This document shows positions 2,644 to 12,655 of a DNA stretch of 64,000 bases, in pieces. The stretch covers positions 39,159-103,158 of the forward strand of contig OZ257127.1 in NCBI GenBank assembly GCA_965278965.1, read 5' to 3'. The DNA is from Actinomycetes bacterium. GTDB lineage: Bacteria; Actinomycetota; Actinomycetes; S36-B12. Each line of letters starts with the position of its first letter. Position 1 is the stretch's first letter. The notes beneath the pieces are model-generated. The model was not told the DNA's origin and made no database searches. It saw only the letters and a list, made by a program, of their open reading frames with translations. The translations under genes and the position numbers were made by a program.

Positions 2644-2763
2644 GCAAGCGCCCTCTGCCCTCGCTGCGTGCCCCGGGTGTTCGCTCGCTGCGCTCGCTCG
2701 ACCCGTGCCACGCGCTCGGCAAAGTGCGCAAGCGCCCTCTGCCCTCGCTGCGTGCCCCGGGTG
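2644..2763. repeat. 36-bp exact direct repeat (2644-2679, 2728-2763) containing the tRNA-Leu 3' end
   Basis: gcaagcgccctctgccctcgctgcgtgccccgggtg occurs twice, 84 bp apart. Confidence 0.9.
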
Positions 2764-2774
2764 GGATTCGAACC
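2747..2774. repeat. att core, left copy (duplicated tRNA-Leu(CAA) 3' end)
   Basis: gctgcgtgccccgggtgggattcgaacc is identical to 12576-12603. Confidence 0.93.
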
Positions 2775-2878
2775 GAGGCCACGTCCCGATCCGTGAGGGA
2801 AATAGGGCCGAATCCGGACAGACCCTGACACGTATTGGGTGTCTACGGGGGTCTGTTGGTGGTCGCTCGGGGGAGTGG

Positions 2879-2899
2879 TGTGCACCCGATGTGCACCGG
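2879..2899 (+). repeat. Candidate integrase arm-type site (tandem TGTGCACC)
   Basis: tgtgcacccgatgtgcaccgg; 20/21 identical to 12499-12519. Confidence 0.7.
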
Positions 2900-3028
2900 G
2901 GGAGAGCTCCGCCCGTTAGACGGACGACGTCACCCGATCACGCGCAGTAACAGCAAGGCGCCCCGCCCGAGCAGCAATCTCGGACGGGGCTGGCACCACC
3001 TCAATCCCGACTAAGGAAAGGCAGCACC

Positions 3029-3418
3029 ATGACCAGAGTGACAGACGCACTAGACGTCTCCAATGCAGCACACGCCGTCCAGTGGGACGGCTCCCGCCGG
3101 CACGCCAACGCGATCGTCGCTTGGATGCGAGCGCACGGAGTCGACTCCAGGTACGAGGCAGCCAAGCAAGTCACCGGGTGCCTGTACCCGCCGACGATCT
3201 GGCTGAGGATGCCAACCGCTGAGGACCGCCCCGGCCCCATCGCCGATCCCCGAGCGCCCTTCCTGCTGCAGGTCTACGCGGGCGGCTGGATCGTTCGGTG
3301 TCCGGCCGCAATCGACTGCTGGATCGCGGGGCAGCAGCTCGGCGTCGAGGCGCCGTACTGGGACGACAGAGGCGAACGAATCGTCCCGCCGAAGGTTCCT
3401 TCGGCCTACGAGGTTTAG
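3029..3418 (+). CDS. Hypothetical protein (element cargo)
   Basis: 129-aa ORF with AAGGAAAGG RBS-like sequence; AVQWDG motif seen in small phage proteins. Confidence 0.55.
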   Translation: MTRVTDALDVSNAAHAVQWDGSRRHANAIVAWMRAHGVDSRYEAAKQVTGCLYPPTIWLRMPTAEDRPGPIADPRAPFLLQVYAGGWIVRCPAAIDCWIAGQQLGVEAPYWDDRGERIVPPKVPSAYEV

Positions 3419-3470
3419 GACCCTCCGCTACGGGGAAGGCTCCCTACATCCGTGATCCCCCGCGCGGAAG

Positions 3471-3502
3471 CGACGCCCCGGCTGGCAACGGCCGGGGCGT
3501 CG
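3471..3502. terminator. GC-rich hairpin (possible terminator)
   Basis: cgacgccccggc / gccggggcgtcg 12-bp stem. Confidence 0.45.
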
Positions 3503-3517
3503 TGCTGCACTGGGGGC

Positions 3518-3706
3518 GTGATCGACCCTGCGATCGTGTCCGTCGGCCTGGATGATGCAGCCCGGCTCACGGGTGTCTCACGGTCCACGATTGAGCGCGC
3601 CCTGCGATCGGGTGCGCTGATCGCGCACTACCCGACGTCGCGGCCCCTCATCCTGATCCGGGATCTCGAGGCCTGGGTCGAAGCGGCCCCGACGGAGCGC
3701 ACATGA
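3518..3706 (+). CDS. Small HTH (excisionase/HTH_17-like) DNA-binding protein
   Basis: LDDAARLTGVSRSTIERALRSGAL...LILIRDLEAWV; GTG start inferred. Confidence 0.75.
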   Translation: MIDPAIVSVGLDDAARLTGVSRSTIERALRSGALIAHYPTSRPLILIRDLEAWVEAAPTERT

Positions 3707-3900
3707 CCGAGCCCCTGCTGACCGTCGCCGACGTCGCCGAGCTGTTCGGCGTTCGCACCCGGTTCGTCTACCGACTGGTCGACGAGCGCCGCATCCCGTT
3801 CATCAAGGTCGGCCGGTACCTGCGGTTCGACCCGGCGGACGTGGAGGCGTACATCGCTGAGCAGCGAACCGACGTTGCGACGCGATGGCCTCGCTACTGA
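3703..3900 (+). CDS. Excisionase-family HTH_17 protein
   Basis: LLTVADVAELFGVRTRFVYRLV...IPFIKVGRYLRFDPADVEAYI; ATGA-coupled to the previous gene. Confidence 0.88.
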   Translation: MTEPLLTVADVAELFGVRTRFVYRLVDERRIPFIKVGRYLRFDPADVEAYIAEQRTDVATRWPRY

Positions 3901-4850
3901 CTTGGGCGACTCGCCAGGAGAGCCCGAATGACCGCCGGATCGAGGCCCATGACTGGCTGCTCCGGACCCGAGTCAAGGAACCCGCTGTCGCTCGGCGCGA
4001 AGACTGCCTGCACCAGGGTGGCAGTGACGACATCTCGGCCTGCCTCCGTGGTCATTGCCGCCTCAAATAGCGTGTACGTGTTGAGTGCGTTCGCCTTCTG
4101 CTCATTCACGACGGCAGTGTGCATGTTCGACCGGTAGGCCTTGACTGTGAACGACAGTGCGTACGACAGAACGCCGAGAACGACCAACTTGACGAGGGTC
4201 TGTCGGACGAGGTCGACCCAGTCCGTGGTCGTGCTGCCGTCGGGCTCGGAGGTCAGGTACAGCCAGGCGATAAGGCCCGCGGCACCGAGCAGGAAGACTG
4301 CAAGAACGGCGGCGGCGATGAGGAAGTTGCGCGCGGTCTTGCGGTGGGCCGTGGCTTGGTCGGCGTAATGCCTGGAGATCTTCAGGGCTCCGACGTCGCC
4401 GGCAGACTTCTTGACTGTCTCAAGAATCTGAGCGACCTGAGCCTCGGCGGCCTTGGCGCTCTCAAGGGACGCGTCCAGTTCACCAATAAGCGCATTGCTC
4501 TCGACCGTCGTCTTGCGTATCTGGGGCTTGACGTCCTTGAGCACGAAATCGCAGAACGATGTGACTCTGTTCGCAAGGTCCGTGTGCTCGTTGCTTGAGT
4601 TGGGATTGGTCACGTCCAGGTTGCTCATCGCTGTCGTGATGTCTCGCAGGGTGTTCAGACCGGAGTTGAGCGCCGATGTAACCGACGGCGGCACGTCATA
4701 GTCGGATTCGTTCGCGTACTGCTCAATGAACTTCCGTGCCGACCGAAGTTGCTCAACCGAGTTGGCGAAGTTGAGGCTCCCGAGATCCTCCCTTCGGACG
4801 AGTTGATCGAGCTCGTCGTCCGACAGGAACTCCAAATGGAACTCTGACAC
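3894..4850 (-). CDS. Uncharacterised coiled-coil protein with two C-terminal TM helices (cargo, possible defence)
   Basis: 318 aa; helical N-terminus, two hydrophobic segments, NEQKANALNTY tail; visibly more A/T-rich than host genes. Confidence 0.75.
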   Translation of the reverse strand: MSEFHLEFLSDDELDQLVRREDLGSLNFANSVEQLRSARKFIEQYANESDYDVPPSVTSALNSGLNTLRDITTAMSNLDVTNPNSSNEHTDLANRVTSFCDFVLKDVKPQIRKTTVESNALIGELDASLESAKAAEAQVAQILETVKKSAGDVGALKISRHYADQATAHRKTARNFLIAAAVLAVFLLGAAGLIAWLYLTSEPDGSTTTDWVDLVRQTLVKLVVLGVLSYALSFTVKAYRSNMHTAVVNEQKANALNTYTLFEAAMTTEAGRDVVTATLVQAVFAPSDSGFLDSGPEQPVMGLDPAVIRALLASRPSQ

Positions 4851-4922
4851 CGTCCGCCCCCGTTCGAAGACCTTGACGGGGATTATGGCGCGTCCGGCCT
4901 ACAGGCGGCTTCGCAATCGTCG

Positions 4923-5333
4923 TCACAGCTCGGACCCGTCCTGGGCGAGCTCGCGGTCGACGTAGAACGCCTCGGCTTTGGCGAGCGGGTAGCTCGGGGA
5001 CTTCACGGGTCGGATGTCGGCGAGGTCGGCCATGAGGACGACACAGCGGTATGTGGGGGGCCAGGGTCCGCGCCACCACCACGGCGGATCGTCGTCTCCT
5101 AGGTACTGGTTGGCGGGGAAGTAGGGCAGGGCGTGGAGTCCGTGGCCGAGCTGGTTGTCGTCGACCCAGTCCGGCGCCGTGACCGTCGTGCCGACCGTGT
5201 AGGTGACGGGACCTACGCCCGGAGTGCGGGCGTACGACGTCAGGTCGAACTTCACCCGCTTGTACAACGTGATCTGGCCGGCGACGACGAGCGCCCCGTG
5301 TGCGGCGGCCCACGCCGCGGGGTCAGTCGTCAC
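4923..5333 (-). CDS. Hypothetical phage-type protein
   Basis: GTG 5333 overlaps the upstream TGA; LYKRV...YTVGTTVTAPDW...GHGLH pattern recalled from small phage domains. Confidence 0.65.
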   Translation of the reverse strand: MTTDPAAWAAAHGALVVAGQITLYKRVKFDLTSYARTPGVGPVTYTVGTTVTAPDWVDDNQLGHGLHALPYFPANQYLGDDDPPWWWRGPWPPTYRCVVLMADLADIRPVKSPSYPLAKAEAFYVDRELAQDGSEL

Positions 5334-5743
5334 GCCGCGCTCGACCAGGCGCGGGTGGCGGCGAACATCCGGTCCACGTCGTACGGCGGCCCAGTGGGTG
5401 GCGTCACGGCACCGCCGACCGTGCATCCGCTGAGGATGTAGGCGTTCGGGACTCGGCTGATCGGCTGAAGGCTGCTGACCGGCACAGAGACCTCGCGCCA
5501 CACCGCGGAGTAGGTGCCGCCGCTGCGGACGTACGGGCTGGGCGCGAAGCCGATCGCGTCGAGCACGACGTCTCCCTCGTCGGCGGGCACGAACGCGGGC
5601 CTCGAGTAGGTCTGACCGCCGTAGGTCGCGATCCACACCGTGGCGTTGCCGCCAGCGACAGGCACGCCCCAGGCTGCACACCACTGTTCGGCGGTGGGCG
5701 TCCACGTGGCGTCGTGGTAGCGGGGCGGGTAGGTAGTCCACAT
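5330..5743 (-). CDS. Hypothetical protein
   Basis: 137 aa; start coupled to the protease stop, stop coupled to the next GTG. Confidence 0.6.
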   Translation of the reverse strand: MWTTYPPRYHDATWTPTAEQWCAAWGVPVAGGNATVWIATYGGQTYSRPAFVPADEGDVVLDAIGFAPSPYVRSGGTYSAVWREVSVPVSSLQPISRVPNAYILSGCTVGGAVTPPTGPPYDVDRMFAATRAWSSAA

Positions 5744-6375
5744 CAGCCGGCCGCCCGGACGCTGAGGATCTCCGCGCCGCCGTACGCCGGGAACGGCGTG
5801 GGTCCGAACTCGCGGAGCGCGATCTCGGTGCGGGTGACGAGCGTGAGTGAGCCGTCGACCCCGGGACGGAAGCCGCCGCGGGGTGTGCGGGTGTCCTGGC
5901 CGATGATGCCGCCGGACCAGGACATGCCGGTGAGGTCGCCGTTGCGGATCGCCTCCAGCACCTGATCGGCGAGCGGGGTGTTGTTGTAGCGGACCGCGGT
6001 GAGTAGGCCCTTGCCGTCGGGACGGATCTCGACGGGGCTGCCGAGTGGCATGGAGAACGTGTCCGACGGGGCGCCGGACAGCGTCTTGGCGTGGTTGTAA
6101 AACACGCCGAACCGCAGGGCCTTGTTCGCGAGCGCGCGGTTGAACGCGGTCGGTGCGAGCTGCTCCCGGTAGTGGCCTTCCTGGTCGAGGATCTCCGTCG
6201 CCTGGTTGAACACGGCGGCGTATGCCTCGACGGTGCGGCCGGTGCCGTCTGAGCGGATGGCGATGTCGGTGGCGTCGAGAGTGATCGAGCGGGTGACGAG
6301 CACGGCTGGCCTCCTCTCAGCGAGGGGTTGCCCTGGCGGTCCCGCCCAGCCGCGGGACCGCCAGGGAGTCGTCAA
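5743..6375 (-). CDS. HK97-family prohead maturation protease
   Basis: RTVEAYAAVFN, VFYNH (His), NGDLTGMSW (Ser), LREFGPTPFPAY. Confidence 0.92.
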   Translation of the reverse strand: MTTPWRSRGWAGPPGQPLAERRPAVLVTRSITLDATDIAIRSDGTGRTVEAYAAVFNQATEILDQEGHYREQLAPTAFNRALANKALRFGVFYNHAKTLSGAPSDTFSMPLGSPVEIRPDGKGLLTAVRYNNTPLADQVLEAIRNGDLTGMSWSGGIIGQDTRTPRGGFRPGVDGSLTLVTRTEIALREFGPTPFPAYGGAEILSVRAAG

Positions 6376-7862
6376 TGTTTCAGCAGCCGGAACGCATCGG
6401 CGTTGACCGACTCAGCGCCCACGCGGTAGTAGGCGGCGAGGCCCGCGCTGTACGTCGGGCGGTTGTTGTCGCCCATGATCATCGGGACCTCGACGAGCTG
6501 GGTCCCGATCCGGTCGACGACGATGTACTCGCTGAAGTCGCCGATGAGCAGGGAGCGGCTTCCGGAGGTGATCGCGCCGGTCATCTCGGACGCCTCGTGG
6601 ATCGGCTTGCCGACCAGGGTCGGCGGGGTGCCGTTGGCGAGCTGGACCCATAGGTCCGTGCCGCCGGTCTGGTCGAAGCGCCGGATGAGGCTGATGATCG
6701 TGTTGTTCGCCAGCCATGCGGTCTTCGCGCTGGCTCGCGCGCGGGGCGTGAGGGCATCCCAGACCTTGTAGACGTCGCCGACGACGAATGCACCGCCGGT
6801 CGTCGAGTCGACCTTGGAGCCCGTCGCTGCCGCGACCGCGGTCACGATGCCCTGCGGGGCCGTCGTTCCGTTGCCGGTGGCGAACGCTGTGGCCTCTTGG
6901 CGCTGCCGCGCGTCGGCGATGAGCCCGGGGAGCTGCGAGATCGCGTTGGTGTCCTGGAACACCTCGTACGAGCCCGTCAGGTACGCCGCGCCCTTGAACG
7001 TCGGGATCGTGACCCGATCGAAGGTCGGCGACGCGTCGGCCGCCTCCGCGCCCTCCGCGAGCCACTCCGCGGTCACGCCGGCCGAGACCACGCCGTTCCA
7101 GTCCCGCGTGATCGTTTGCTCGACGCGGGCGAGCTGCCGGATCGGGTGCGTTGCCCCGGCGTTGGTCAGCATCACGGTCGGGTCCAGCGACAGCGGCATG
7201 AGGTACCCGCCGTTGGCGTTCGTCAGGCTCATTGCCGCACGGACCGCCTCGACGCGGGCGTAGGACTCCCGCTCCTCCTCGGTCCACAGCATGTGCCCGC
7301 GCCGCGGGTCGCGCATCGCCTTGACGAACGCGCTGCGATACGCCGGGCTGGACAGGGCGATGACGTAGGCGGAGTCGCCGACGAGGTCGTCCCGGTCCAG
7401 GATCTCGGTCAGCCGAGAGCGGGCCGCGTCGTCGAGACCGGGAGCCTGCTCGATAACGGTACGAGCACGGCTCGCCAGCCCCATCGGGGAGTCGATCCGC
7501 ACGACGTCGTCACCGGCACCAGCGGCCCACGGGTCGGTGCGCTGCCGAACCTCGGCGTCGCCGGGTCGCTCCGGGGCGTGAAACGCGGCTTCGACCCGAT
7601 CCGGGTTGGACCGGGCGATGTCGCGAATCCGCTCGATCTGCTCGGCCCGGGTCACCTCTGCCGGCGTCTGAACCTGGCCGTCGTCCTCCAGGAGGAACAC
7701 GGCGCTGCGAGCCTTGTCGATACCGGCCATGAGACGGTCACTGCGCTCGACCTGGCCCGGAGTCCACTGGGACCGGTCGTTGCCCCAGGTCTGGTACATG
7801 CCGTCGAGCTGAGACTGGAGCGACTCGGCTCGGGCGGTCAGGGTGTTGATGTCATCAGCCAC
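6372..7862 (-). CDS. HK97-fold major capsid protein with N-terminal scaffold (delta) domain
   Basis: GGYLMP..LDP, AEWLAEGAE, LLIGDFSEYIVVDR, YYRVG...AFRLL; GGAGG RBS before GTG 7862; resembles M. tuberculosis phiRv1/phiRv2 capsids (from recall). Confidence 0.95.
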   Translation of the reverse strand: MADDINTLTARAESLQSQLDGMYQTWGNDRSQWTPGQVERSDRLMAGIDKARSAVFLLEDDGQVQTPAEVTRAEQIERIRDIARSNPDRVEAAFHAPERPGDAEVRQRTDPWAAGAGDDVVRIDSPMGLASRARTVIEQAPGLDDAARSRLTEILDRDDLVGDSAYVIALSSPAYRSAFVKAMRDPRRGHMLWTEEERESYARVEAVRAAMSLTNANGGYLMPLSLDPTVMLTNAGATHPIRQLARVEQTITRDWNGVVSAGVTAEWLAEGAEAADASPTFDRVTIPTFKGAAYLTGSYEVFQDTNAISQLPGLIADARQRQEATAFATGNGTTAPQGIVTAVAAATGSKVDSTTGGAFVVGDVYKVWDALTPRARASAKTAWLANNTIISLIRRFDQTGGTDLWVQLANGTPPTLVGKPIHEASEMTGAITSGSRSLLIGDFSEYIVVDRIGTQLVEVPMIMGDNNRPTYSAGLAAYYRVGAESVNADAFRLLKH

Positions 7863-8343
7863 GGAGGCCTCCAAGGAAATGCGCGATACGCGCGAGGAAT
7901 GAGGGGAGGCGGCAGGCGCTCGAAGGCGCGGGCCTGGCTGGGTCGAACGGGCCGGGCAGCAGGCCGTCCGGCAGGCCCTCCACGGGCGGGTCGGACGACG
8001 GGCCGAGCAGCGGGCTCGACGCGTCAGCGTCGGGATCAGTGTAGCGCGGGGGTGCGTCATCTAACGAGTCCGACGCAGTCATCTGGAGCAGCCGCGCGGC
8101 CTCGACGGGATCCATCCCGATCAGTTCCGTAGCGACGTCGACCATGAAGTGCCCGCGGTACATCACCCGCAGCGCCTCGTGCAGGTTGCCGGCATCGAAG
8201 TCGCCAAGCTCGTACTGCTGCCGCGCGAGCTCGGCGTGCGTCTCCGCGCGCATCTCAAGCATCCCTCGATCGAGCCGGCGAGCATCAGCCACGTACGAGT
8301 CGAAGATCCGCCGCAGCGTCTCCACCGCTTCCACGGCGCTCAC
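7855..8343 (-). CDS. Hypothetical protein
   Basis: GTG 8343 overlaps upstream TGA; helical N-terminus, Pro-rich tail overlapping the capsid start. Confidence 0.6.
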   Translation of the reverse strand: MSAVEAVETLRRIFDSYVADARRLDRGMLEMRAETHAELARQQYELGDFDAGNLHEALRVMYRGHFMVDVATELIGMDPVEAARLLQMTASDSLDDAPPRYTDPDADASSPLLGPSSDPPVEGLPDGLLPGPFDPARPAPSSACRLPSFLARIAHFLGGLRG

Positions 8344-8606
8344 GCCGCGTCCAACGGGTTGTCGCCGCCGAGCGAAACGATCTCGGCCGCCAGGTCCGTC
8401 AGAGCCACCGCGCGGTACAGCAGCGCGATCCGGGTGTGCAGATCCTCGGAATGGACGTCGCCGCGTTCGTGTGCCTGGTCCCGCAACCATTCGTACAGCT
8501 CCACCGCGTGATCGCAGGTCTCCCGGTCAGCGCTGAGAGCGTGCTCGATGTACGGCTCGGCGAGGGCACGCAGCGAGGCGATCTGGTCAGGGACGGGTGT
8601 GGTCAC
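8340..8606 (-). CDS. Hypothetical protein
   Basis: 88-aa helical ORF, coupled (GTGA) on both sides. Confidence 0.65.
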   Translation of the reverse strand: MTTPVPDQIASLRALAEPYIEHALSADRETCDHAVELYEWLRDQAHERGDVHSEDLHTRIALLYRAVALTDLAAEIVSLGGDNPLDAA

Positions 8607-8935
8607 GGGGTCTCCGATTCGCTGTTGAAGGTGTTGATGGCGGCACGCATTTGCTTGACGATCGAGACGTAGCCGGACAGCGTCGGCGGTGCCGTGTCGA
8701 CGACATGTGCCAGGTAGACGGCCAGAAGTCCCGCCGGGGTGGCGAGCTGCTCCGGGGTGTGGCCTGCCTCCAGTGCGGCCCGGATCGAGCCGGGTTCAGC
8801 GGGAATCGACAGGTCGGGCGGTGACGGCAATAGGCGCACGTTGAACGCCTGCTTGCGGCAGCGCGCCGAGCAGTACCGACGGGTCGATCTCCGCGCCGCG
8901 ATCGGCGCGCTGCACACGCAGCACAGGACGATCAC
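8603..8935 (-). CDS. Putative terminase small subunit-like protein with N-terminal Cys zinc finger
   Basis: CCVC...RRYCSARCR followed by helical LAVYLAHVVD...IVKQMRAAI; lies between HNH and capsid genes. Confidence 0.55.
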   Translation of the reverse strand: MIVLCCVCSAPIAARRSTRRYCSARCRKQAFNVRLLPSPPDLSIPAEPGSIRAALEAGHTPEQLATPAGLLAVYLAHVVDTAPPTLSGYVSIVKQMRAAINTFNSESETP

Positions 8936-9040
8936 GGCTTACCGTTCCTTGGGTTAACCCAGGGGATATATCGGGACATGGGTCCGGGGTTTCCTTCTGA
9001 TTTCCCTGTTTGCGCATCGATGGCCCACCCCCATATGTGG
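8936..9040. other. Candidate cos/packaging site
   Basis: A/T-richer gap between HNH and TerS-like genes; palindromes tgggttaaccca (8950-8961) and gatatatc (8965-8972). Confidence 0.4.
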
Positions 9041-9346
9041 TCACCAGCCAGGCACGAAGCGAGGAGCGCCACGTCTCACCCCCGATCTCGGGTGCCGTGT
9101 GCGCTTGCGTGCTGACCGCCCGTAGTTGCCGGGGCAGCCGAGGTCGGGGTGCTTCCTGCCGTGCGCCGGCCGCCAGTTGGATGCATCCCAGGTGAGCTCA
9201 GGTGCGACGCTGCGTGGCACGACGTGGTCAACGGAGTAGTCCCAGTCAGGGATCTCGTGCCCACACAGCCAGCAGATGTAGCCGAGGTTGAGCTTGCACC
9301 ACGTGACGGCTTGCTGGGCTCTGCGCCCAGACCACGCCGCGGTCAT
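9041..9346 (-). CDS. HNH endonuclease (terminase-associated type)
   Basis: CWLCG, SVDHVVPRS, N-W-R-P-A-H...C..N. Confidence 0.88.
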   Translation of the reverse strand: MTAAWSGRRAQQAVTWCKLNLGYICWLCGHEIPDWDYSVDHVVPRSVAPELTWDASNWRPAHGRKHPDLGCPGNYGRSARKRTRHPRSGVRRGAPRFVPGW

Positions 9347-9438
9347 CGGTCAGCCTCCGAACAGCCGGGTCGGTGTTCGATCGATCGCTCGGGGTACTGA
9401 ACGGCGCCGCACTCGGGGCAGCGAGGCCACGTCGTCAT
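9343..9438 (-). CDS. Small Cys-containing peptide (31 aa)
   Basis: MTTWPRCPECG...HRPGC; ATGA-coupled on both sides, GGAGG upstream. Confidence 0.5.
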   Translation of the reverse strand: MTTWPRCPECGAVQYPERSIEHRPGCSEADR

Positions 9439-10004
9439 GACGCCTCCACGTGCACGCGTCGGTTCTGCTCGGGGAGCTGGCAGCAGCCGGGCGTGAACGG
9501 GTGTGCGGCGAGCGGGAGAGGATGATCTTCTGAGCCCGTCGGGGCGGAGCCACCCGACGTGGCGCCCGGTATGGCCTTGGTAAGGCCTTGGTGGGTTGCA
9601 GCGGGCCGCCACCGTTGCTGTCGAATATTGCCGCCGTTAGCGTCGGATATTGCCGCCGTTGACCCTGTGACACCGGCACTCTGCTGCCGCCGTTGATCCC
9701 CTGACACCGGCACTGGAGTGCCACCGTCGGGGATCGTGAGTCGGTACGTCCGAGCTCGGCCGGGTGCCGTTGGGATGCCGTCCCACTCGATCAGCCCGGC
9801 GACCCTCAGTGCGTTCACCATGGCTCGGGTCTGACGGTCAGCAAGGCCCGCCATGTGGGCCATGCGCGCGGTGCCGGCACGCATGTTCTCGCCGGTCGCA
9901 TAGTCGGCGTGCGTCGACATCACGAGCGCCACGGCCTTGGCCGAGCTCGGGACGTCTGTCCGAGCGACGGCCTCGAGCCAGTCGAGTACGAATGTCCGCG
10001 GCAC
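9435..10004 (-). CDS. Putative replication initiator (N-terminal winged HTH)
   Basis: AKAVALVMSTHAD...RMAHMAGLADRQTRAMVNALRVAGLI...RTYRL; internal DNA repeats as in lambda-O-like initiators. Confidence 0.65.
   Translation of the reverse strand: MPRTFVLDWLEAVARTDVPSSAKAVALVMSTHADYATGENMRAGTARMAHMAGLADRQTRAMVNALRVAGLIEWDGIPTAPGRARTYRLTIPDGGTPVPVSGDQRRQQSAGVTGSTAAISDANGGNIRQQRWRPAATHQGLTKAIPGATSGGSAPTGSEDHPLPLAAHPFTPGCCQLPEQNRRVHVEAS
9607..9728. repeat. Iteron-like array inside the rep gene
   Basis: (t)gcc(g/a)ccgt(t) at 9607, 9629, 9651, 9685, 9719 (spacing 22, 22, 34, 34). Confidence 0.65.
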
Positions 10005-10007
10005 ACG

Positions 10008-10250
10008 TCACCGCCCCCGACGGAATCGGAGGGCGCGACTCATCTCGTCCCTGAGCCGCTTAGCCCGCCCCGGGTGCTCGGACCGGCCACGCCAGATCGC
10101 ATTCAGGTGGTACCGCGGGTAGTCGGGGAACTGACGTCGGATCTCCGCGACGTCGAGCTCGGACTTGGCCGCGTAGACGCCGGGCGGAACCATCGCCGGC
10201 TCGTGCTCGCACGCGAGTGCGTCAACACAGTCGGCGGCCAGGCCGCCCAC
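10008..10250 (-). CDS. Hypothetical protein
   Basis: 80-aa ORF filling the gap between the HTH and rep genes. Confidence 0.5.
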   Translation of the reverse strand: MGGLAADCVDALACEHEPAMVPPGVYAAKSELDVAEIRRQFPDYPRYHLNAIWRGRSEHPGRAKRLRDEMSRALRFRRGR

Positions 10251-10251
10251 G

Positions 10252-10458
10252 TCACCCAGCCTTCGGGGGAGTGATGCCGTTCGACTGAGAGATCCACGCG
10301 GCGACGGTGCCGCGTGAGTAGCGGACGGCCTGGCCGATCTTCACGCCGCGTGGTCCGACGCCACGCTTACGCCAGTCCCGAACGGTTTCCGGGCTGACCT
10401 TGAGCTCGGCGGCGAGCTCGACGGTGGTTAGCCATTCATCGTTGGTGGTCACGGACAC
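10252..10458 (-). CDS. AlpA/excisionase-like HTH regulator
   Basis: WLTTVELAAELKVSPETVRDWRKRGVGPRGVKIGQAVRY; AGGGAGG RBS before GTG 10458. Confidence 0.88.
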   Translation of the reverse strand: MSVTTNDEWLTTVELAAELKVSPETVRDWRKRGVGPRGVKIGQAVRYSRGTVAAWISQSNGITPPKAG

Positions 10459-10570
10459 TGCCGCCTCCCTGTGTTCACGGGCGCATCTATTGCGCTCCCC
10501 ACAGAATCCCCGTACGGTGCCGCAGTAGCAAGAAATCAATACCCCGTCTAAACCCCCAATCGAAAGGGAT

Positions 10571-11383
10571 TTGATGCCTGAGCCGAAGGTCAGGTGGGAA
10601 GCCAAGTTCCCGGAGGTCGTCGGGCCGGCCGTTCGAGTCCAGGTCGTGGCCGAGTTCCCGGATGAGGCGGGCGCAAACTTCGAAATGGATCAGCCGATAC
10701 CCGCGCTGGAGCTAGCGATGTGGAGCGTGGATCAGTCGGGAACGGCTGGACTTACCCTTCACGACGACCCAGCCGGACCGGCGACGCATCGCGTGATGGT
10801 CGAGTGGAAGGGAGTCAGCTCCGGCATCGCGTTCACGAGCGTCACCCTGGTTACCGAACCCGCAGGCGAGCCGATCGACGGCGCCACACTTGGCGAGGTC
10901 GCTGCGAAGTTCGAGCAGTGGTCCGCTGCCCTGCAATCGAAGATCCTCGTCGAGGTTGCGACGCAAAGGCAGAGCTTCTCGATCTCGTTTCCTCACTTCT
11001 CGATCTCGATCGAGAAGGGTGCGGCGACTCTCACGATGGGCGATCGAGTCGCGCACGGTCGCGGCACGCTCCGGTTTGTCGTCGAAGAATCGACGCTCGC
11101 TGGAATGGAGGTCGAGCTCGCCCGACGACAGCGCCTCCAGCTCACCGACGACGACTATCGCGAGGTTGCCAGGGTGTACGCCGATGCCGTGGAGCGTGGC
11201 GCGCCGGTCCTGGCAACGGTTGGTCGAATGTTTGGGGGCGCGAACACCGGCAGCAAGGCGCAGGCGGCGAACCGCAAGCGAGCTGAGCGCTGGATCGCCG
11301 AAGCGAGGTCCCGCGGCTATATCGCCAAGCGCGCACCTGGGCGTCCTGCGAAGAAGCCACCGTCGGCAAAGGAGGTTCGATGA
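10571..11383 (+). CDS. Putative repressor/regulator with C-terminal HTH (DUF6214-like)
   Basis: LTDDDYREVARVYADA...AERWIAEARSRGYI; divergent from the AlpA-like gene, coupled to the integrase. Confidence 0.65.
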   Translation: MMPEPKVRWEAKFPEVVGPAVRVQVVAEFPDEAGANFEMDQPIPALELAMWSVDQSGTAGLTLHDDPAGPATHRVMVEWKGVSSGIAFTSVTLVTEPAGEPIDGATLGEVAAKFEQWSAALQSKILVEVATQRQSFSISFPHFSISIEKGAATLTMGDRVAHGRGTLRFVVEESTLAGMEVELARRQRLQLTDDDYREVARVYADAVERGAPVLATVGRMFGGANTGSKAQAANRKRAERWIAEARSRGYIAKRAPGRPAKKPPSAKEVR

Positions 11384-12540
11384 CCGTCACCGACCGCTGG
11401 CACAGCAGCACGGGGGAGCAGTCCACGGAGTACGGACGCGGCCGACGGTGGCTCGTGCGCTACCGGGATCCGCAGGGCAAGCAGCGCTCGCGTTCGTTCG
11501 ATCGCAAGGCGCAGGCGGACGCCTATGACCTACGGGTGCGCGGCCAGGTCGTCGAGAGCACGTACGTCGACCCGTCCGCCGGCAAGGTCACGTTCGGGGA
11601 GTACGCGCAGGCGTGGCTCGCGTTGCAGACGCACTGGCGGCCGTCGACCCGTCGCAGCCAAGAGCAGATGGTGAAGCTCCGGATGGTTCCGCACATCGGC
11701 ATGACGCCGCTGCGGGTGCTGAACCGCTCGCAGGTGCAGGCGATGGTGAACGCCTGGCGGACCGACTACGCCGCGGCCACGGTCACCACGACGTTCTCGT
11801 GCCTGCGGACGATCCTCGCGTCGGCGATCGACGACAAGGTGATCGCGACCGACCCGTCGACCAAGATCAAGGTCCCGACGCCGCCGCGTCGTCGTGACGT
11901 CCACCTGAGCCACGAGCAGGTGGCGACGATCCTCGGAACCGCCAAGCCCGAGCTGCGACCGTTCTTCGCGTCGCTGGCGTGGTGTGGGCTGCGGCTGGGG
12001 GAGTCGCTGGGGCTCGACGTCGCGGACGTCGACTTCCTGACCGCGACGCTGACCGTGCGCCGGCAGATGGACACCGAGGACCCGGCGGGTCGGATCGTGC
12101 CGTTCACCAAGACCGACGCGGGTCGACGCGAGGTTCCGGTGCCGCCTGAGCTCACCGCGATGTGCTCGGCGTTCCTGGCCGCTCGACGCCGCGCGGACGG
12201 ATCGCTCGAGGGCACGCACCTGTGGCAGGCGCCGAGCGGCGCCCGGCTACTGCGGACGGTCGTCGACACCGAAGTCCGCCGGATTGAACGGCGCACGGGC
12301 ATCACGTTCTCGCCCCACCACCTGCGGCACTACTACGGGGCCAGCCTGATCTCGGCTGGCGTGCCCGTTCCGCAGGTCGCCAAGCAGATGGGCCACGCCA
12401 GCCCACAGGTGACCATGCGCGTGTACGCCTACGCGATGAAGGACGACGCCGACAAGGGTCGCGCAGCCGTCGCAGCGCTCGCCGGCCTCTCTGCGCCATG
12501 TGCACCGGATGTGCACCGGACCGTGGCGGTGAGCAAATGA
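11380..12540 (+). CDS. Tyrosine recombinase / phage integrase
   Basis: Catalytic GLRLGE (R), TKT (K), HHLRH (HxxR), MGH, VYAY (Y); N-terminal WLVRYRDPQGKQRSRSF arm-binding domain. Confidence 0.96.
   Translation: MTVTDRWHSSTGEQSTEYGRGRRWLVRYRDPQGKQRSRSFDRKAQADAYDLRVRGQVVESTYVDPSAGKVTFGEYAQAWLALQTHWRPSTRRSQEQMVKLRMVPHIGMTPLRVLNRSQVQAMVNAWRTDYAAATVTTTFSCLRTILASAIDDKVIATDPSTKIKVPTPPRRRDVHLSHEQVATILGTAKPELRPFFASLAWCGLRLGESLGLDVADVDFLTATLTVRRQMDTEDPAGRIVPFTKTDAGRREVPVPPELTAMCSAFLAARRRADGSLEGTHLWQAPSGARLLRTVVDTEVRRIERRTGITFSPHHLRHYYGASLISAGVPVPQVAKQMGHASPQVTMRVYAYAMKDDADKGRAAVAALAGLSAPCAPDVHRTVAVSK
12499..12519 (+). repeat. Candidate integrase arm-type site (tandem TGTGCACC)
   Basis: tgtgcaccggatgtgcaccgg, matches 2879-2899. 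Confidence 0.7.
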
Positions 12541-12575
12541 CACGGGTGTCTGCCCTGGTCAGGCGGCACATTGGT

Positions 12576-12603
12576 GCTGCGTGCCCCGGGTGGGATTCGA
12601 ACC
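12576..12603. repeat. att core, right copy (within the intact tRNA)
   Basis: Identical to 2747-2774. Confidence 0.93.
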
Positions 12604-12655
12604 CACACTGGACGGTGTTTGAGACCGCTTCCTCTGCCGGTTGGGATACCGGGGC
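12582..12655 (-). tRNA. tRNA-Leu(CAA), short variable arm, CCA not encoded
   Basis: Acceptor GCCCCGG/CCGGGGC-A; anticodon arm GCGGT-CT-CAA-AC-ACCGT; T loop GGTTCGAATCC. Confidence 0.93.

Follow-up and report, generated by a model that had tools for sequence, protein, structure and literature searches.

A capsid-encoding island without a portal gene in tRNA-Leu(CAA) of an uncultured actinobacterium, a candidate phage satellite

The window, a 64-kb stretch of DNA from an uncultured Actinomycetales-like bacterium, contains a discrete, site-specific insertion at a tRNA gene (Table 1). The insert is bounded by an exact 28 bp direct repeat, GCTGCGTGCCCCGGGTGGGATTCGAACC, as the initial annotation had described, and measures 9,829 bp from the start of one copy to the start of the other. 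The right copy comprises the 3′ 23 nt of tRNA-Leu(CAA) and 5 nt past the tRNA. A tyrosine integrase placed the element in the 3′ end of this gene. The sequence ATGTGCACC has four matches in the window (0.28 expected), three of them at the ends of the element. Repeats near attL and attR, a pair also present in an island of the related genome G006, are candidate arm-type sites for the integrase. An empty site in relatives, which had been proposed as a check, was found in 15 of 24 genomes of the same genus by coordinates (flanks within about 3.5 kb) and was verified directly in one genome, G005. By the same coordinate reading, four others (G013, G018, G019, and G021) retain only a 3′-end stub of the integrase beside the tRNA. 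Three different islands occupy this att site in the genus (9.83 kb for the element, 7.79 and 9.61 kb for the others), and each carries int, an HTH_17 gene and a capsid gene, but no portal. The islands of G006 and G010 have 23 bp repeats of the same att core.

Table 1. Features of the element, in window coordinates, with the supporting matches (E-values in parentheses).
Feature	Position	Strand	Evidence or remarks
attL	2747..2774		Displaced copy of tRNA-Leu 3′ end; exact repeat of 12576-12603
Candidate arm-type site of the integrase beside attL, TGTGCACCCGATGTGCACCGG	2879..2899		95% repeat of 12499-12519
orf129	3029..3418	+	Opens small plus-strand operon at attL end
HTH_17/excisionase-family DNA-binding protein, 84 aa	3452..3706	+	PF12728 (2.1e-6)
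Excisionase (Xis/RDF) candidate, 65 aa	3703..3900	+	PF12728 (3.6e-15); phrog_1840 excisionase (1.3e-7)
Membrane protein, 318 aa	3894..4850	-	Lowest GC of element, 0.606 vs 0.677
orf136	4923..5333	-	Last gene of long operon; GTGA overlap with orf137
orf137	5330..5743	-	Conserved; 5.8 billion proteins yield two homologues, 72% and 58% identical
HK97-family prohead serine protease (S78), short form, 210 aa	5743..6375	-	PF04586 (4.5e-16); TIGR01543 (1e-17)
HK97-fold major capsid protein, 496 aa	6372..7862	-	PF05065 (4.2e-39), 279/280 positions; TIGR01554 (3.2e-48)
orf162	7855..8343	-	Helical domain paralogous to orf88, Pro-rich tail
orf88, small helical protein	8340..8606	-	78% identity to G006 island ORF
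Zn-ribbon protein znf110, in TerS slot	8603..8935	-	phrog_6975 (1.3e-5)
Candidate cos site	8936..9040		105-nt gap, the operon's one sizeable intergenic stretch
HNH endonuclease, 101 aa	9041..9346	-	phrog_338 (1.3e-9) and seven other HNH PHROGs
Zn-ribbon mini-ORF, 31 aa	9343..9438	-	ATGA overlap at either side; kept in three islands
Rep candidate	9435..10004	-	N-terminal winged-helix domain; iterons in 3′ half of ORF
Iteron cluster, candidate replication origin	9607..9718		Tandem 22-nt and 34-nt repeats
orf80	10008..10250	-	1-nt and 3-nt spacing to neighbours
HTH_17 (MerR/excisionase-type) protein	10252..10458	-	PF12728 (7.3e-11); first gene of long operon
orf270, 270 aa	10571..11383	+	Overlaps int by 4 nt; divergent from long operon
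Tyrosine integrase, 386 aa	11380..12540	+	PF00589 (1.3e-18), PF14659, PF22022; phrog_1 (2e-59)
Candidate arm-type site of the integrase beside attR, two copies of ATGTGCACCGG	12498..12520		
attR	12576..12603		Inside intact tRNA-Leu(CAA) gene, 12581-12655, minus strand

The integrase, HNH endonuclease, HK97 capsid and protease had been named from the sequence, and all four identities hold by Pfam, PHROGs or NCBIfam. The integrase shares 89% identity with that of G006 and 60% with that of G010, at the same site. The gene coupled to it, orf270, had been called a regulator, but it matches no family in Pfam, PHROGs, NCBIfam or PADLOC, and the Atlas returned only hypothetical actinobacterial clusters for it. 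A divergent control region separates orf270 and int from the long operon, and the position of orf270 is that of Stl in SaPIs. At the attL end, orf129 has weak PHROG matches only (E above 0.004). Two HTH_17/excisionase-type genes (3452-3706 and 3703-3900) and the membrane protein gene (3894-4850) were absent from the initial gene list. The 84-aa product matches TIGR01764 under the family cut-off (7.7e-6), while the 65-aa product matches the same "excise" model at 1.1e-13 (51.3 bits vs a cut-off of 28.8) and is the best excisionase candidate of the element, which encodes three proteins of this type in all. The membrane protein has weak matches to DUF6161 (6.7e-5, under cut-off) and AbiZ (2.8e-5); its gene probably represents accessory cargo and may act in abortive infection.

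The rest of the element is a single, tightly coupled operon without frameshifts, as first described. Its 12 minus-strand genes, from 10458 to 4923, contain no internal stops, and neighbours overlap or lie at most 3 nt apart, the one exception being a 105-nt gap after the HNH gene. The order is HTH_17, orf80, the Rep candidate with its iterons, the 31-aa Zn-ribbon ORF, HNH, the gap, znf110, orf88, orf162, capsid, protease, orf137 and orf136. The HTH_17 protein was initially called AlpA-like; the HTH stands, but it is of the HTH_17/excisionase-MerR type. Its gene starts with GTG behind an AGGGAGG ribosome-binding site, and its product, a candidate activator, is 52% identical to the first gene product of the G006 and G010 islands. 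The mini-ORF is 64% identical to its G006 counterpart and 38% to that of G010. No family match was found for orf80 or orf137 in Pfam, PHROGs or NCBIfam; the structure model of orf137 is unusable (pLDDT 42), and orf136 has a weak match to a PHROG of unknown function (phrog_15773, 3.8e-6). The designation "rep" draws on weak family matches (phrog_26991, 1.4e-7; phrog_270, replication initiation, 0.006) and on the adjacent iterons. Homologues of the N-terminal part are 61-75% identical, and PF13730 is present in one; the protein has no primase or helicase domain. Three of the four exact copies of AACGGCGGCA in the window lie at 9629-9694. The winged-helix protein and the iterons may thus form a replication module of the element's own.

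The genes on either side of the gap resemble the recognition end of a cos phage. The HNH endonuclease also has a weak PF14279 match (0.0037). The neighbouring znf110, initially described as TerS-like, has 62 relatives with E-values of 0.001 or below, and 45 of 47 family members match phrog_6975. One member, P0047, matches 78 of 78 actinophage records, at gene 1, immediately ahead of TerL; all 30 matches listed fall at nt 58-526, covering the gene numbered 1 wherever genes carry numbers. The znf110 protein itself is 31% identical (E 3e-9) to gene 1 of phage Charlie, which abuts TerL. In Charlie the HNH gene is the last gene and the genome ends lie between it and gene 1, the same order as HNH, gap and znf110 here. 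What stands of the TerS label is the slot and the gene-1 family; the structure model of znf110 (pLDDT 95) matched no TerS structure. From its gene position we propose that znf110 is the small terminase or cos-recognition subunit, and by the same analogy the gap is a candidate cos site. Because znf110 belongs to the actinophage gene-1 family and the order is that of Charlie, the three would form a cos-type recognition module without its motor.

About 200 N-terminal residues of the capsid protein occupy the delta-domain position. The protein is a PF05065 member that groups with phage capsids, and it is 40% identical to Gordonia phage capsids over 74% of its length. The protease keeps the catalytic H95 and S152 that are invariant in an alignment of seven sequences. 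The five proteases of phages and prophages in that alignment have a long C-terminal tail, which the element's protease lacks. The capsid-then-protease order is the reverse of that in six protease-bearing comparison loci and in phages Kita and Charlie; either this order or the missing tail could reflect decay. Next to the capsid, orf162 resembles orf88 (29% identity across 80 aa, E 6e-10), and a homologue search with it turned up no further relative. A precedent for a satellite capsid homologue is Ccm of SaPIbov5, which has an HK97 fold and a delta-like N-terminus and, as described in PMC5052747, changes the size of the capsid without being able to stand in for the phage's own capsid protein. 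The element's capsid homologue could likewise co-assemble with or perturb a helper capsid, giving small heads and helper interference with a mainly helper-made shell. We give this a small but real probability, given the lack of a portal in the island, the tail-less protease and the SatelliteFinder PICI model, which includes a "capsid morphogenesis" component, with HNH and serine protease as occasional PICI genes (PMC10085698). However, Ccm is only distantly related to the helper capsid protein (19.2% identity is quoted in the fold-comparison passage of PMC5052747), whereas the element capsid is 40% identical to major capsid proteins of plaque-forming phages and aligns with the whole Pfam model. 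A protease with intact catalytic residues is also not obviously needed by a mere modifier.

Apart from capsid and protease, the element carries no recognizable morphogenesis genes. Pfam, PHROGs and NCBIfam gave no match to portal, TerL, head-tail, tail or lysis families, in line with the initial annotation, which had also raised the possibility of degraded portal or TerL fragments among the ORFs. When the element was searched by tblastn with 123 query proteins, 112 of them taken from five related prophages and 11 from phage Kita, the capsid and protease alone were matched significantly, and no fragments of portal, TerL, tail or lysis genes appeared; the same portal queries recover portals at 37-43% identity in two phage contigs. 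Lacking a portal, large terminase and tail, the element most probably depends on a helper phage. No helper was detected in its own genome, a single contig of 3.68 Mb (97.9% complete), where neither a PF04860 or PF05133 portal nor a second capsid is present. PF03354 and PF20441 are absent as well, which is weak evidence because no Pfam match was obtained for the proteins at the TerL position in the related prophages.

Decay of a prophage or satellite that lost TerL, portal and tail, and is now immobile with stops not yet accumulated, would also explain such a gene set. The rearranged capsid-protease order, the truncated protease, the several orphan ORFs and the decay seen at this very site as integrase stubs would fit, as would the lack of a helper or sibling; two metagenome scans, and one genome scan with orf137, found no siblings. 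The capsid type occurs in 2 of 33 genomes of the genus, plus one weak match. Ten other capsid matches at class level comprise five prophages with a portal, three small portal-less islands and two fragments, the last again in keeping with decay. In two small islands (L015 and L034) a tape-measure-like gene adjoins the capsid, a layout that resembles an internal prophage deletion. Even so, we consider a remnant unlikely. The att repeats are exact, start-stop overlaps are kept through 12 uninterrupted genes, and no trace of portal or TerL is present in any frame. The module for replication and regulation does not resemble that of phages and recurs in the other islands at the site, whose sizes cluster with the element's at 7.8-9.8 kb. 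The capsid is only 51% identical to that of the G006 island, yet both are full length. None of the relatives examined carries this block within a full-length prophage, the arrangement that would have marked a deletion remnant in the initial annotation; the occupied sites in the genus hold the two small islands.

The same portal-less layout is found beyond this site, which likewise speaks against a remnant. A separate capsid clade (support 100/99) is present in 17 small loci from many genera across Actinomycetota, with an integrase within about 6 kb in 15 of 17 and a portal or TerL in none. Only one of the 17 has a protease. Such widespread capsid-only islands, together with the weak AbiZ-like cargo gene and the lack of a known helper, could also mean that capsid and protease serve a role other than phage-borne transfer, as a cell-made particle or compartment, or within an anti-phage defence island without mobility of its own. 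We find this very improbable: the HNH and gene-1-family protein in the exact cos-phage arrangement argue for DNA packaging, a cycle of excision, replication and packaging is indicated by the integrase, the excisionase candidate and the iterons, and the capsid is of phage type.

We therefore favor, with moderate confidence, an integrated and apparently intact helper-dependent satellite of the PICI/phiRv type. The exact att repeat, site-specific insertion and empty sites argue for it, as do the missing motor and tail genes beside the element's own recognition and replication modules, and the recurrence of portal-less capsid islands at the site and across Actinomycetota. Intactness is argued by the uninterrupted, overlapping genes, the retained H95/S152, and the near-complete capsid, full length despite its divergence from that of G006. 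The reading is weakened by the lack of a detected helper, the rarity of the element, the rearranged order, the tail-less protease, the purely positional TerS role and a Rep without primase or helicase domain.

The literature offers a parallel. PMC12268328 describes phiRv1 as an element of 10 kb that encodes an integrase, an excisionase, a primase, a terminase, a protease and a capsid, a gene set that the present island parallels, so the phiRv-like layout first noted holds. The class had been called poorly characterised, but SatelliteFinder files phiRv elements as PICIs (PMC10085698), and integrase-plus-capsid regions of Mycobacterium are proposed as candidate PICIs in PMC10654092. This kind of element had already been proposed in mycobacteria, though never shown to work.

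Under the satellite reading, infection by a cos-type siphophage helper would derepress the operon. Int, with the 65-aa excisionase-type protein from the opposite end, would excise the island, and Rep would fire the iteron origin. The large terminase of the helper would find its cos site within the 105-nt gap, marked by the gene-1-family protein together with HNH. The island capsid protein and protease could build a small shell on the helper portal, alone or jointly, with room for about 10 kb but not for the helper genome, and the helper would provide portal, TerL, connectors, tail and lysis. New here is the assignment of the "TerS-like" gene to the actinophage gene-1 family that precedes TerL.

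The element at 2747-12603 is probably a helper-dependent satellite of the PICI or phiRv kind, judging from its boundaries and gene content. A repeat search of the window recovered the exact 28 bp repeat of the tRNA 3′ end that the initial annotation had proposed as its boundary, with the right copy in a tRNA-Leu(CAA). Between the starts of the two repeats, the insert spans 9,829 bp, with a GC content of 0.677 (window, 0.700). EF-P and NusB lie on its left flank and an ANTAR response regulator on its right, the latter named from the equivalent genes in the G006 and G010 island loci (L014 and L015). The empty tRNA-Leu site that was to be sought in relatives exists. The coordinates of a DNA search of 40 relatives place both flanks on one contig, no more than ~3.5 kb apart, in 15 of the 24 same-genus genomes listed, and in G005 we verified the empty site directly; here the tRNA is followed by three tandem units. 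EF-P is 84–91% identical to the proteins of MAGs labelled Actinomycetales or Actinomycetota and 84–87% identical to those of Cellulomonas and Actinotalea, identities that put the host among uncultured Actinomycetales-like lineages. A ATGTGCACC-based repeat lies ~105 nt inside attL and ~57 nt inside attR, and the G006 island has the same repeat. These repeats are candidate integrase arm sites. Among Logan contigs, the element occurs in four runs (X1–X4), all from one sample, with no RNA run among them. One contig covers 2734-12628 and is broken at the repeats, and a second runs from 2734 through attR and represents the integrated form. The junction of an excised form was not seen in those contigs; their joints, with sides of 21–23 nt, match neither attP nor an empty attB and count neither for nor against excision.

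Features of the element and its insertion site, with positions in the window
Feature	Position	Strand	Evidence or character
Left 28 bp direct repeat	2747-2774		Exact copy of the right repeat
318-aa membrane protein	3894-4850		Lowest-GC stretch of the island (0.606); weak AbiZ (2.8e-5) and DUF6161 matches
S78 prohead protease, 210 aa	5743-6375	minus	Invariant His95 and Ser152 retained
HK97-family major capsid protein	6372-7862	minus	PF05065 4.2e-39; TIGR01554 3.2e-48
TerS-slot protein, 110 aa	8603-8935	minus	N-terminal CxxC...CSxxC zinc ribbon and helical C-terminal part
HNH endonuclease	9041-9346	minus	Pfam/PHROGs/NCBIfam
Rep candidate	9435-10004	minus	Conserved N-terminal winged-helix domain; phrog_26991 1.4e-7; phrog_270 0.006 (weak)
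HTH_17 protein, first gene of the operon	10252-10458	minus	PF12728 7.3e-11; weak MerR_1 and phrog_2474 'MerR-like' matches
Tyrosine integrase	11380-12540		PF00589 1.3e-18; phrog_1 2e-59
Right 28 bp direct repeat	12576-12603		Overlaps the 3′ end of tRNA-Leu(CAA)
tRNA-Leu(CAA)	12581-12655	minus	

Gene families were called with Pfam, PHROGs and NCBIfam, and the calls bear out the integrase, the HK97 capsid and the protease read in the initial annotation. The operon comprises twelve genes from 10458 to 4923, joined by overlaps of 1–8 nt or spacers of 1–3 nt. The sole exception is a 105-nt gap between the HNH gene and the next. The gene that heads the operon had been described as an AlpA-like HTH; an HTH gene is present there, but it does not match the AlpA family (PF05930). 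Two further HTH_17 genes lie at the attL end, and the 65-aa product of one of these clears the NCBIfam 'excise' cut-off (51.3 bits vs. 28.8). The product of orf270, in the Stl position, matches no family and returned hypothetical clusters only in the Atlas. The homologues of the Rep candidate are 61–75% identical to it, and one of them carries PF13730; no primase or helicase domain was found in the candidate. The 3′ half of its ORF contains tandem 22-nt and 34-nt repeats around AACGGCGGCA, which has four exact copies in the window, three of them within 9629-9694. This repeat cluster is a candidate iteron origin. The 318-aa membrane protein may be an abortive-infection cargo gene. A promoter and terminator scan was uninformative, with no promoter-like sites and four terminator-like ones (3.0 expected). 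A 31-aa zinc-ribbon mini-ORF (CxxC...C) is common to all three islands at the att site (window 9343-9438; L014 ~6214-6339; L015 ~8832-9014), at 64% and 38% identity. In the window it is translationally coupled on both sides.

The capsid protein aligns over 279 of 280 Pfam positions and is 40% identical to capsids of plaque-forming Gordonia phages. The protease aligns without the C-terminal tail that brings five phage and prophage proteases to ~270–310 aa. The protease of another island, L035 (10889-11539), is likewise short (216 aa) and retains the catalytic His and Ser. Capsid precedes protease in the element, whereas the order is reversed in six protease-bearing comparison loci and in the actinophages Kita and Charlie. 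Two small ORFs, orf88 and orf162, occupy the place of TerL and portal and are paralogues (29% identity over 80 aa, E 6e-10). The first is 78% identical to a G006 gene; the search with the second returned no homologue other than itself. The head genes are followed by orf137 and orf136, which have no family match and no assignable fold. Two homologues of orf137 were found (72% and 58% identity), its Atlas search gave unnamed clusters only (at 0.88), and its AlphaFold model, from three sequences, has a pLDDT of 41.7.

The reading that portal, large terminase, head-tail, tail and lysis genes are missing from the element held up. No family match to portal, large terminase, connector, tail, lysis or holin was found in it with Pfam, PHROGs or NCBIfam, which leave five small ORFs without assignment; the longest such ORF of the operon is 162 aa. 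In a tblastn against the whole element with 123 queries (five related prophages supplied 112 and Gordonia phage Kita 11), the capsid and the protease were the only significant matches. All portal and TerL rows have E ≥ 0.02, which is chance-level for portal, and the six TerL-position queries (five prophages and Kita) gave a single row, from the Kita query (E 0.72). The portal search has power, because the same queries recover portals at 37–43% identity in two phage contigs (L040 and L041). The TerL-position proteins of the five prophages (L030, L031, L033, L036 and L037; ~490–550 aa) have no Pfam match at 1e-5. Thus, Pfam-based statements that TerL is absent are unreliable in this group.

The TerS-slot protein, which the initial annotation had called TerS-like, belongs to a phage family of characteristic position. 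An exhaustive HMMER search gave 62 relatives at E ≤ 0.001, mostly of 124–145 aa, and 45 of the 47 sequences in the family alignment (the protein itself and 46 relatives) match phrog_6975 ('unknown function'). One member, P0047, matches 78/78 phage records, by name 75 Mycobacterium, two Gordonia and one Mycolicibacterium phage. The match lies at nt 58-526 in 30 of the 30 rows listed, and the gene is labelled 1 wherever the row is numbered. Gene 1 of Mycobacterium phage Charlie is 31% identical to the TerS-slot protein (E 3e-9) and abuts TerL; the annotation of the first 12 genes names no other small terminase. At its right end, the Charlie genome closes with an HNH endonuclease gene. The circularised order in Charlie is HNH, ends, gene 1, TerL, portal, protease, capsid; the order in the island is HNH, 105-nt gap, gene-1 homologue, two small genes, capsid, protease. 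From the position of gene 1 before TerL in phages, we read the TerS-slot protein as a candidate small terminase or cos-recognition subunit and the 105-nt gap as the candidate location of cos, an argument that is positional and not proof. The HNH proteins of the element and Charlie share no significant similarity. The TerS-slot protein matched no TerS family in Pfam, PHROGs or NCBIfam. Its model has a pLDDT of 95; in PDB and BFVD, Foldseek aligned this model over the 35-aa N-terminal zinc ribbon and no further, with no TerS among the matches, and the helical-bundle matches from VIA-align wide (Z ≤ 6.3) are within the background range.

Three lines, namely the islands at the same att site, a survey of the class, and a capsid tree, point to a type and not an accident. 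Two other islands occupy the same tRNA-Leu site in the genus, with related integrases, HTH_17 genes and the zinc-ribbon ORF. The G006 island (7,789 bp, 23-bp repeats) has an integrase 89% and a capsid 51% identical to those of the element, as well as a DUF3631 replication-type protein; no protease or HNH was found in it. The G010 island (9,613 bp, 23-bp repeats with one mismatch) has an integrase 60% identical to the element's, a capsid from a different lineage and a PHROG match to replication initiators. A portal was found in neither. Relatives of the element capsid at E ≤ 1e-20 occur in 11 of 401 genomes of the class, its own included. Of the ten other loci, five belong to prophages, in which the capsid adjoins a PF04860 portal and is followed by tail genes (in three, an S78 protease was also detected between portal and capsid). 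Another three are small islands that have a serine or tyrosine recombinase and no portal, and the last two are capsid fragments.

In a tree of 15 capsids, the window's capsid groups with that of G006 (100/100), and a phage contig stands beside the pair (97/95). Four other island capsids (L032, L001, L034, L035) form a clade of their own (100/99). The G010 capsid joins that of Charlie (99/98), on long branches. A profile from a two-sequence capsid alignment of the island clade found 17 loci (L128–L144), two of them already known, in Nocardioides, Streptomyces, Gordonia, Actinoplanes, Jiangella, Nocardiopsis, Geodermatophilus, Actinoallomurus, Sphaerisporangium, Acidimicrobiia-type MAGs and a Gaiellales MAG. 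The flanks compared reached 9 kb from the capsid, or the contig end where that came first; in them, seven queries each for portal and TerL matched none of the 17 loci by tblastn (E ≤ 1e-4). Integrase queries matched 15, the two others being cut by contig ends, and protease queries matched one. On these matches, the capsid clade is specific to integrase-linked small islands and reaches many actinobacterial orders. At least three capsid lineages are represented among the portal-less islands found repeatedly in Actinomycetota, a pattern that supports regarding them as a functional class. At L032, a T2SSE-type ATPase gene is split via a serine recombinase.

Decay at the same site, islands with a tape measure, and the rarity of the exact lineage speak against a satellite type. 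In G013, G018, G019 and G021, the DNA-search coordinates cover ~60–360 nt from the 3′ end of the integrase gene, next to the tRNA, and leave the island body unmatched; these stubs look like decayed copies. A 904-aa tape-measure-like protein lies beside the capsid gene in the G010 island (L015 3860-6574; phrog_1686 1.3e-15), and one of 569 aa beside that of the G112 island (L034 1789-3498; phrog_991 5e-29; 38.6% identical to the L037 tape measure). Such pairs look like the internal deletion of a prophage, or else they are satellites with their own tape measure. Siblings of the element were found neither by megablast against phages, nor with the orf137 profile in genome and metagenome contigs, nor with the window and G006 capsid profile in metagenome contigs, and in these searches the exact lineage is rare. 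The viral contigs L040 and L041 were rejected as siblings; they proved to be pieces of ordinary phages that encode TerL, portal, protease and capsid.

Islands that encode a capsid but lack a portal, phiRv1/2 among them, have been on record since the late 1990s, and we found no demonstration of a helper, particle or transfer for them in the literature searched. No M. tuberculosis locus was among those returned by two of our scans. The element integrase is of the tyrosine type, at a tRNA, whereas that of phiRv1 is of the serine type. The element also differs from phiRv in its capsid-then-protease order, its HNH, its Rep (a small winged-helix protein with candidate iterons, not a primase) and its distant, uncultured actinomycete host, and it matches the phiRv 'terminase' by gene position only. 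phiRv1 is described as 10 kb long and as encoding an integrase, an excisionase, a primase, a terminase, a protease and a capsid, without evidence of particles (PMC12268328). By described gene content, the likeness to phiRv1 and phiRv2 consists in an integrated element of ~10 kb with integrase, excisionase, replication gene, prohead protease and capsid; the descriptions list no portal, TerL or tail and show particle formation for neither (PMC12268328, PMC10085698). SatelliteFinder, whose Mycobacterium elements are likened to phiRv1/2, files the latter as PICIs. Under its definition, a PICI carries an integrase, TerS, a primase-replicase, a gene for capsid morphogenesis and a regulator that is a homologue of alpA, merR or stl; it may not carry genes for tail, holin, portal or connector, and HNH and serine protease are occasional (PMC10085698). 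The element has the integrase and the capsid gene, no match to tail, holin, portal or connector, and an HTH_17 protein with weak MerR-type matches in Pfam and PHROGs. The Hatfull laboratory treats integrase-plus-capsid regions of Mycobacterium as candidate PICIs and states that their induction by a helper is not demonstrated (PMC10654092). The element has the integration machinery and capsid gene of that operational definition, and its tyrosine integrase lies at a tRNA between attL and attR, like those of three of the four mapped examples there; as a kind, the islands have diverse capsids common to phages (PMC10654092). It lies outside Mycobacterium, however, and a putative packaging-recognition module (HNH, gap, gene-1 family) is identified in it.

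The statement of the initial annotation that cf-PICIs encode portal and TerL agrees with PMC10690885, where the Streptomyces satellites MulchRoom and MiniFlayer also have both. The element shares with cf-PICIs its own capsid, protease, HNH and TerS-position gene and a left half of int, candidate regulator and candidate rep (PMC10085698, PMC10690885), but the defining TerL, portal and head-tail adaptor/connector were not found. Therefore, it is not a cf-PICI, nor does it belong with MulchRoom and MiniFlayer. At 9.83 kb, it is also not an intact temperate siphophage, which would have TerL, portal, tail, lysis and at least 35 kb. Cluster N and related cos actinophages, e.g., Charlie, have the same arrangement of HNH, genome end and gene-1-family protein. 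In the 43-kb Charlie genome, genes for TerL, portal, protease, capsid, connectors and tail come next, whereas the element has two small paralogous helical proteins in place of TerL and portal.

The main mechanistic rival, by analogy, is that the capsid homologue of the element would redirect the capsid size of a helper. Ccm of the cos-dependent island SaPIbov5 is a capsid homologue described as acting in this way, and SaPIbov5 resembles the element as a small island with an HK97-fold capsid homologue, a delta-like N-terminus, cos-helper dependence (proposed for the element) and neither portal nor TerL (PMC5052747). Ccm is, however, a distant homologue of the helper capsid that is described there as unable to replace it (PMC5052747), whereas the element capsid is full and phage-grade and has its own protease, HNH and TerS-slot gene. 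We find a satellite of some mechanism, the Ccm-like variant included, quite likely, and lean modestly toward the full mechanism as proposed, in which the element makes its own head and borrows portal, TerL and tail from a cos-type helper. If that mechanism works, a satellite can supply the shell and borrow just portal, motor and tail.

More tentatively, and with the odds rather against it, the element could represent a distinct strategy between classical PICIs and cf-PICIs. The phage-grade capsid protein and protease would form a complete shell-building set and the HNH and gene-1-family protein a cos-recognition set. Paralogous helical proteins of the orf88/orf162 type would stand in for TerL and portal, recruiting the helper portal and motor or adapting them to the small satellite-made capsid. 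If so, the many portal-less integrase-plus-capsid islands of Actinomycetota would be working 'shell-only' satellites and not relics, including the 17 one-clade loci, none with portal or TerL. Free of apparent decay, the element offers a clean example from a host other than Mycobacterium, and its parts are readable: att sites, candidate arm sites, a putative iteron origin and a cos-type HNH, gap and gene-1 module. From this module, the helpers to look for would be cos siphophages in which a gene-1-family protein adjoins TerL. The sequence evidence newly points to this module and to portal-less capsid islands being widespread in Actinomycetota. The result is incremental and annotation-level, and not a new kind of system.

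The genome of the element is a single contig of 3.68 Mb and 97.9% complete. No PF04860 or PF05133 portal was found in the whole of it, and its one PF05065 capsid is the element's; thus, no resident helper was detected. PF03354 and PF20441 were not found in this genome either, which is weak evidence since the TerL-position proteins of related prophages escape Pfam. Tyrosine-recombinase matches number four: two strong ones elsewhere, presumably XerC/D, the element integrase and one fragment. The fragment (G000:C1:2375775-2376109, outside the window; 21.8 bits, below the cut-off) adjoins a tRNA-like stretch 82% identical to tRNA-Leu(CAA), and together they are probably the remnant of another island.

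The host locus 3′ of tRNA-Leu(CAA) contains tandem units, each opening with the final tRNA nucleotides. In the window, copies of a 36-nt repeat lie at 2644-2679 and 2728-2763 (stretch 2644-2763), G005 has three 76-nt units (L016 2246-2428), and G010 has a 20-nt repeat with copies 91 nt apart (L015 2191-2301). Such units may be scars left by successive rounds of integration and excision, or they may be a terminator present in several copies.
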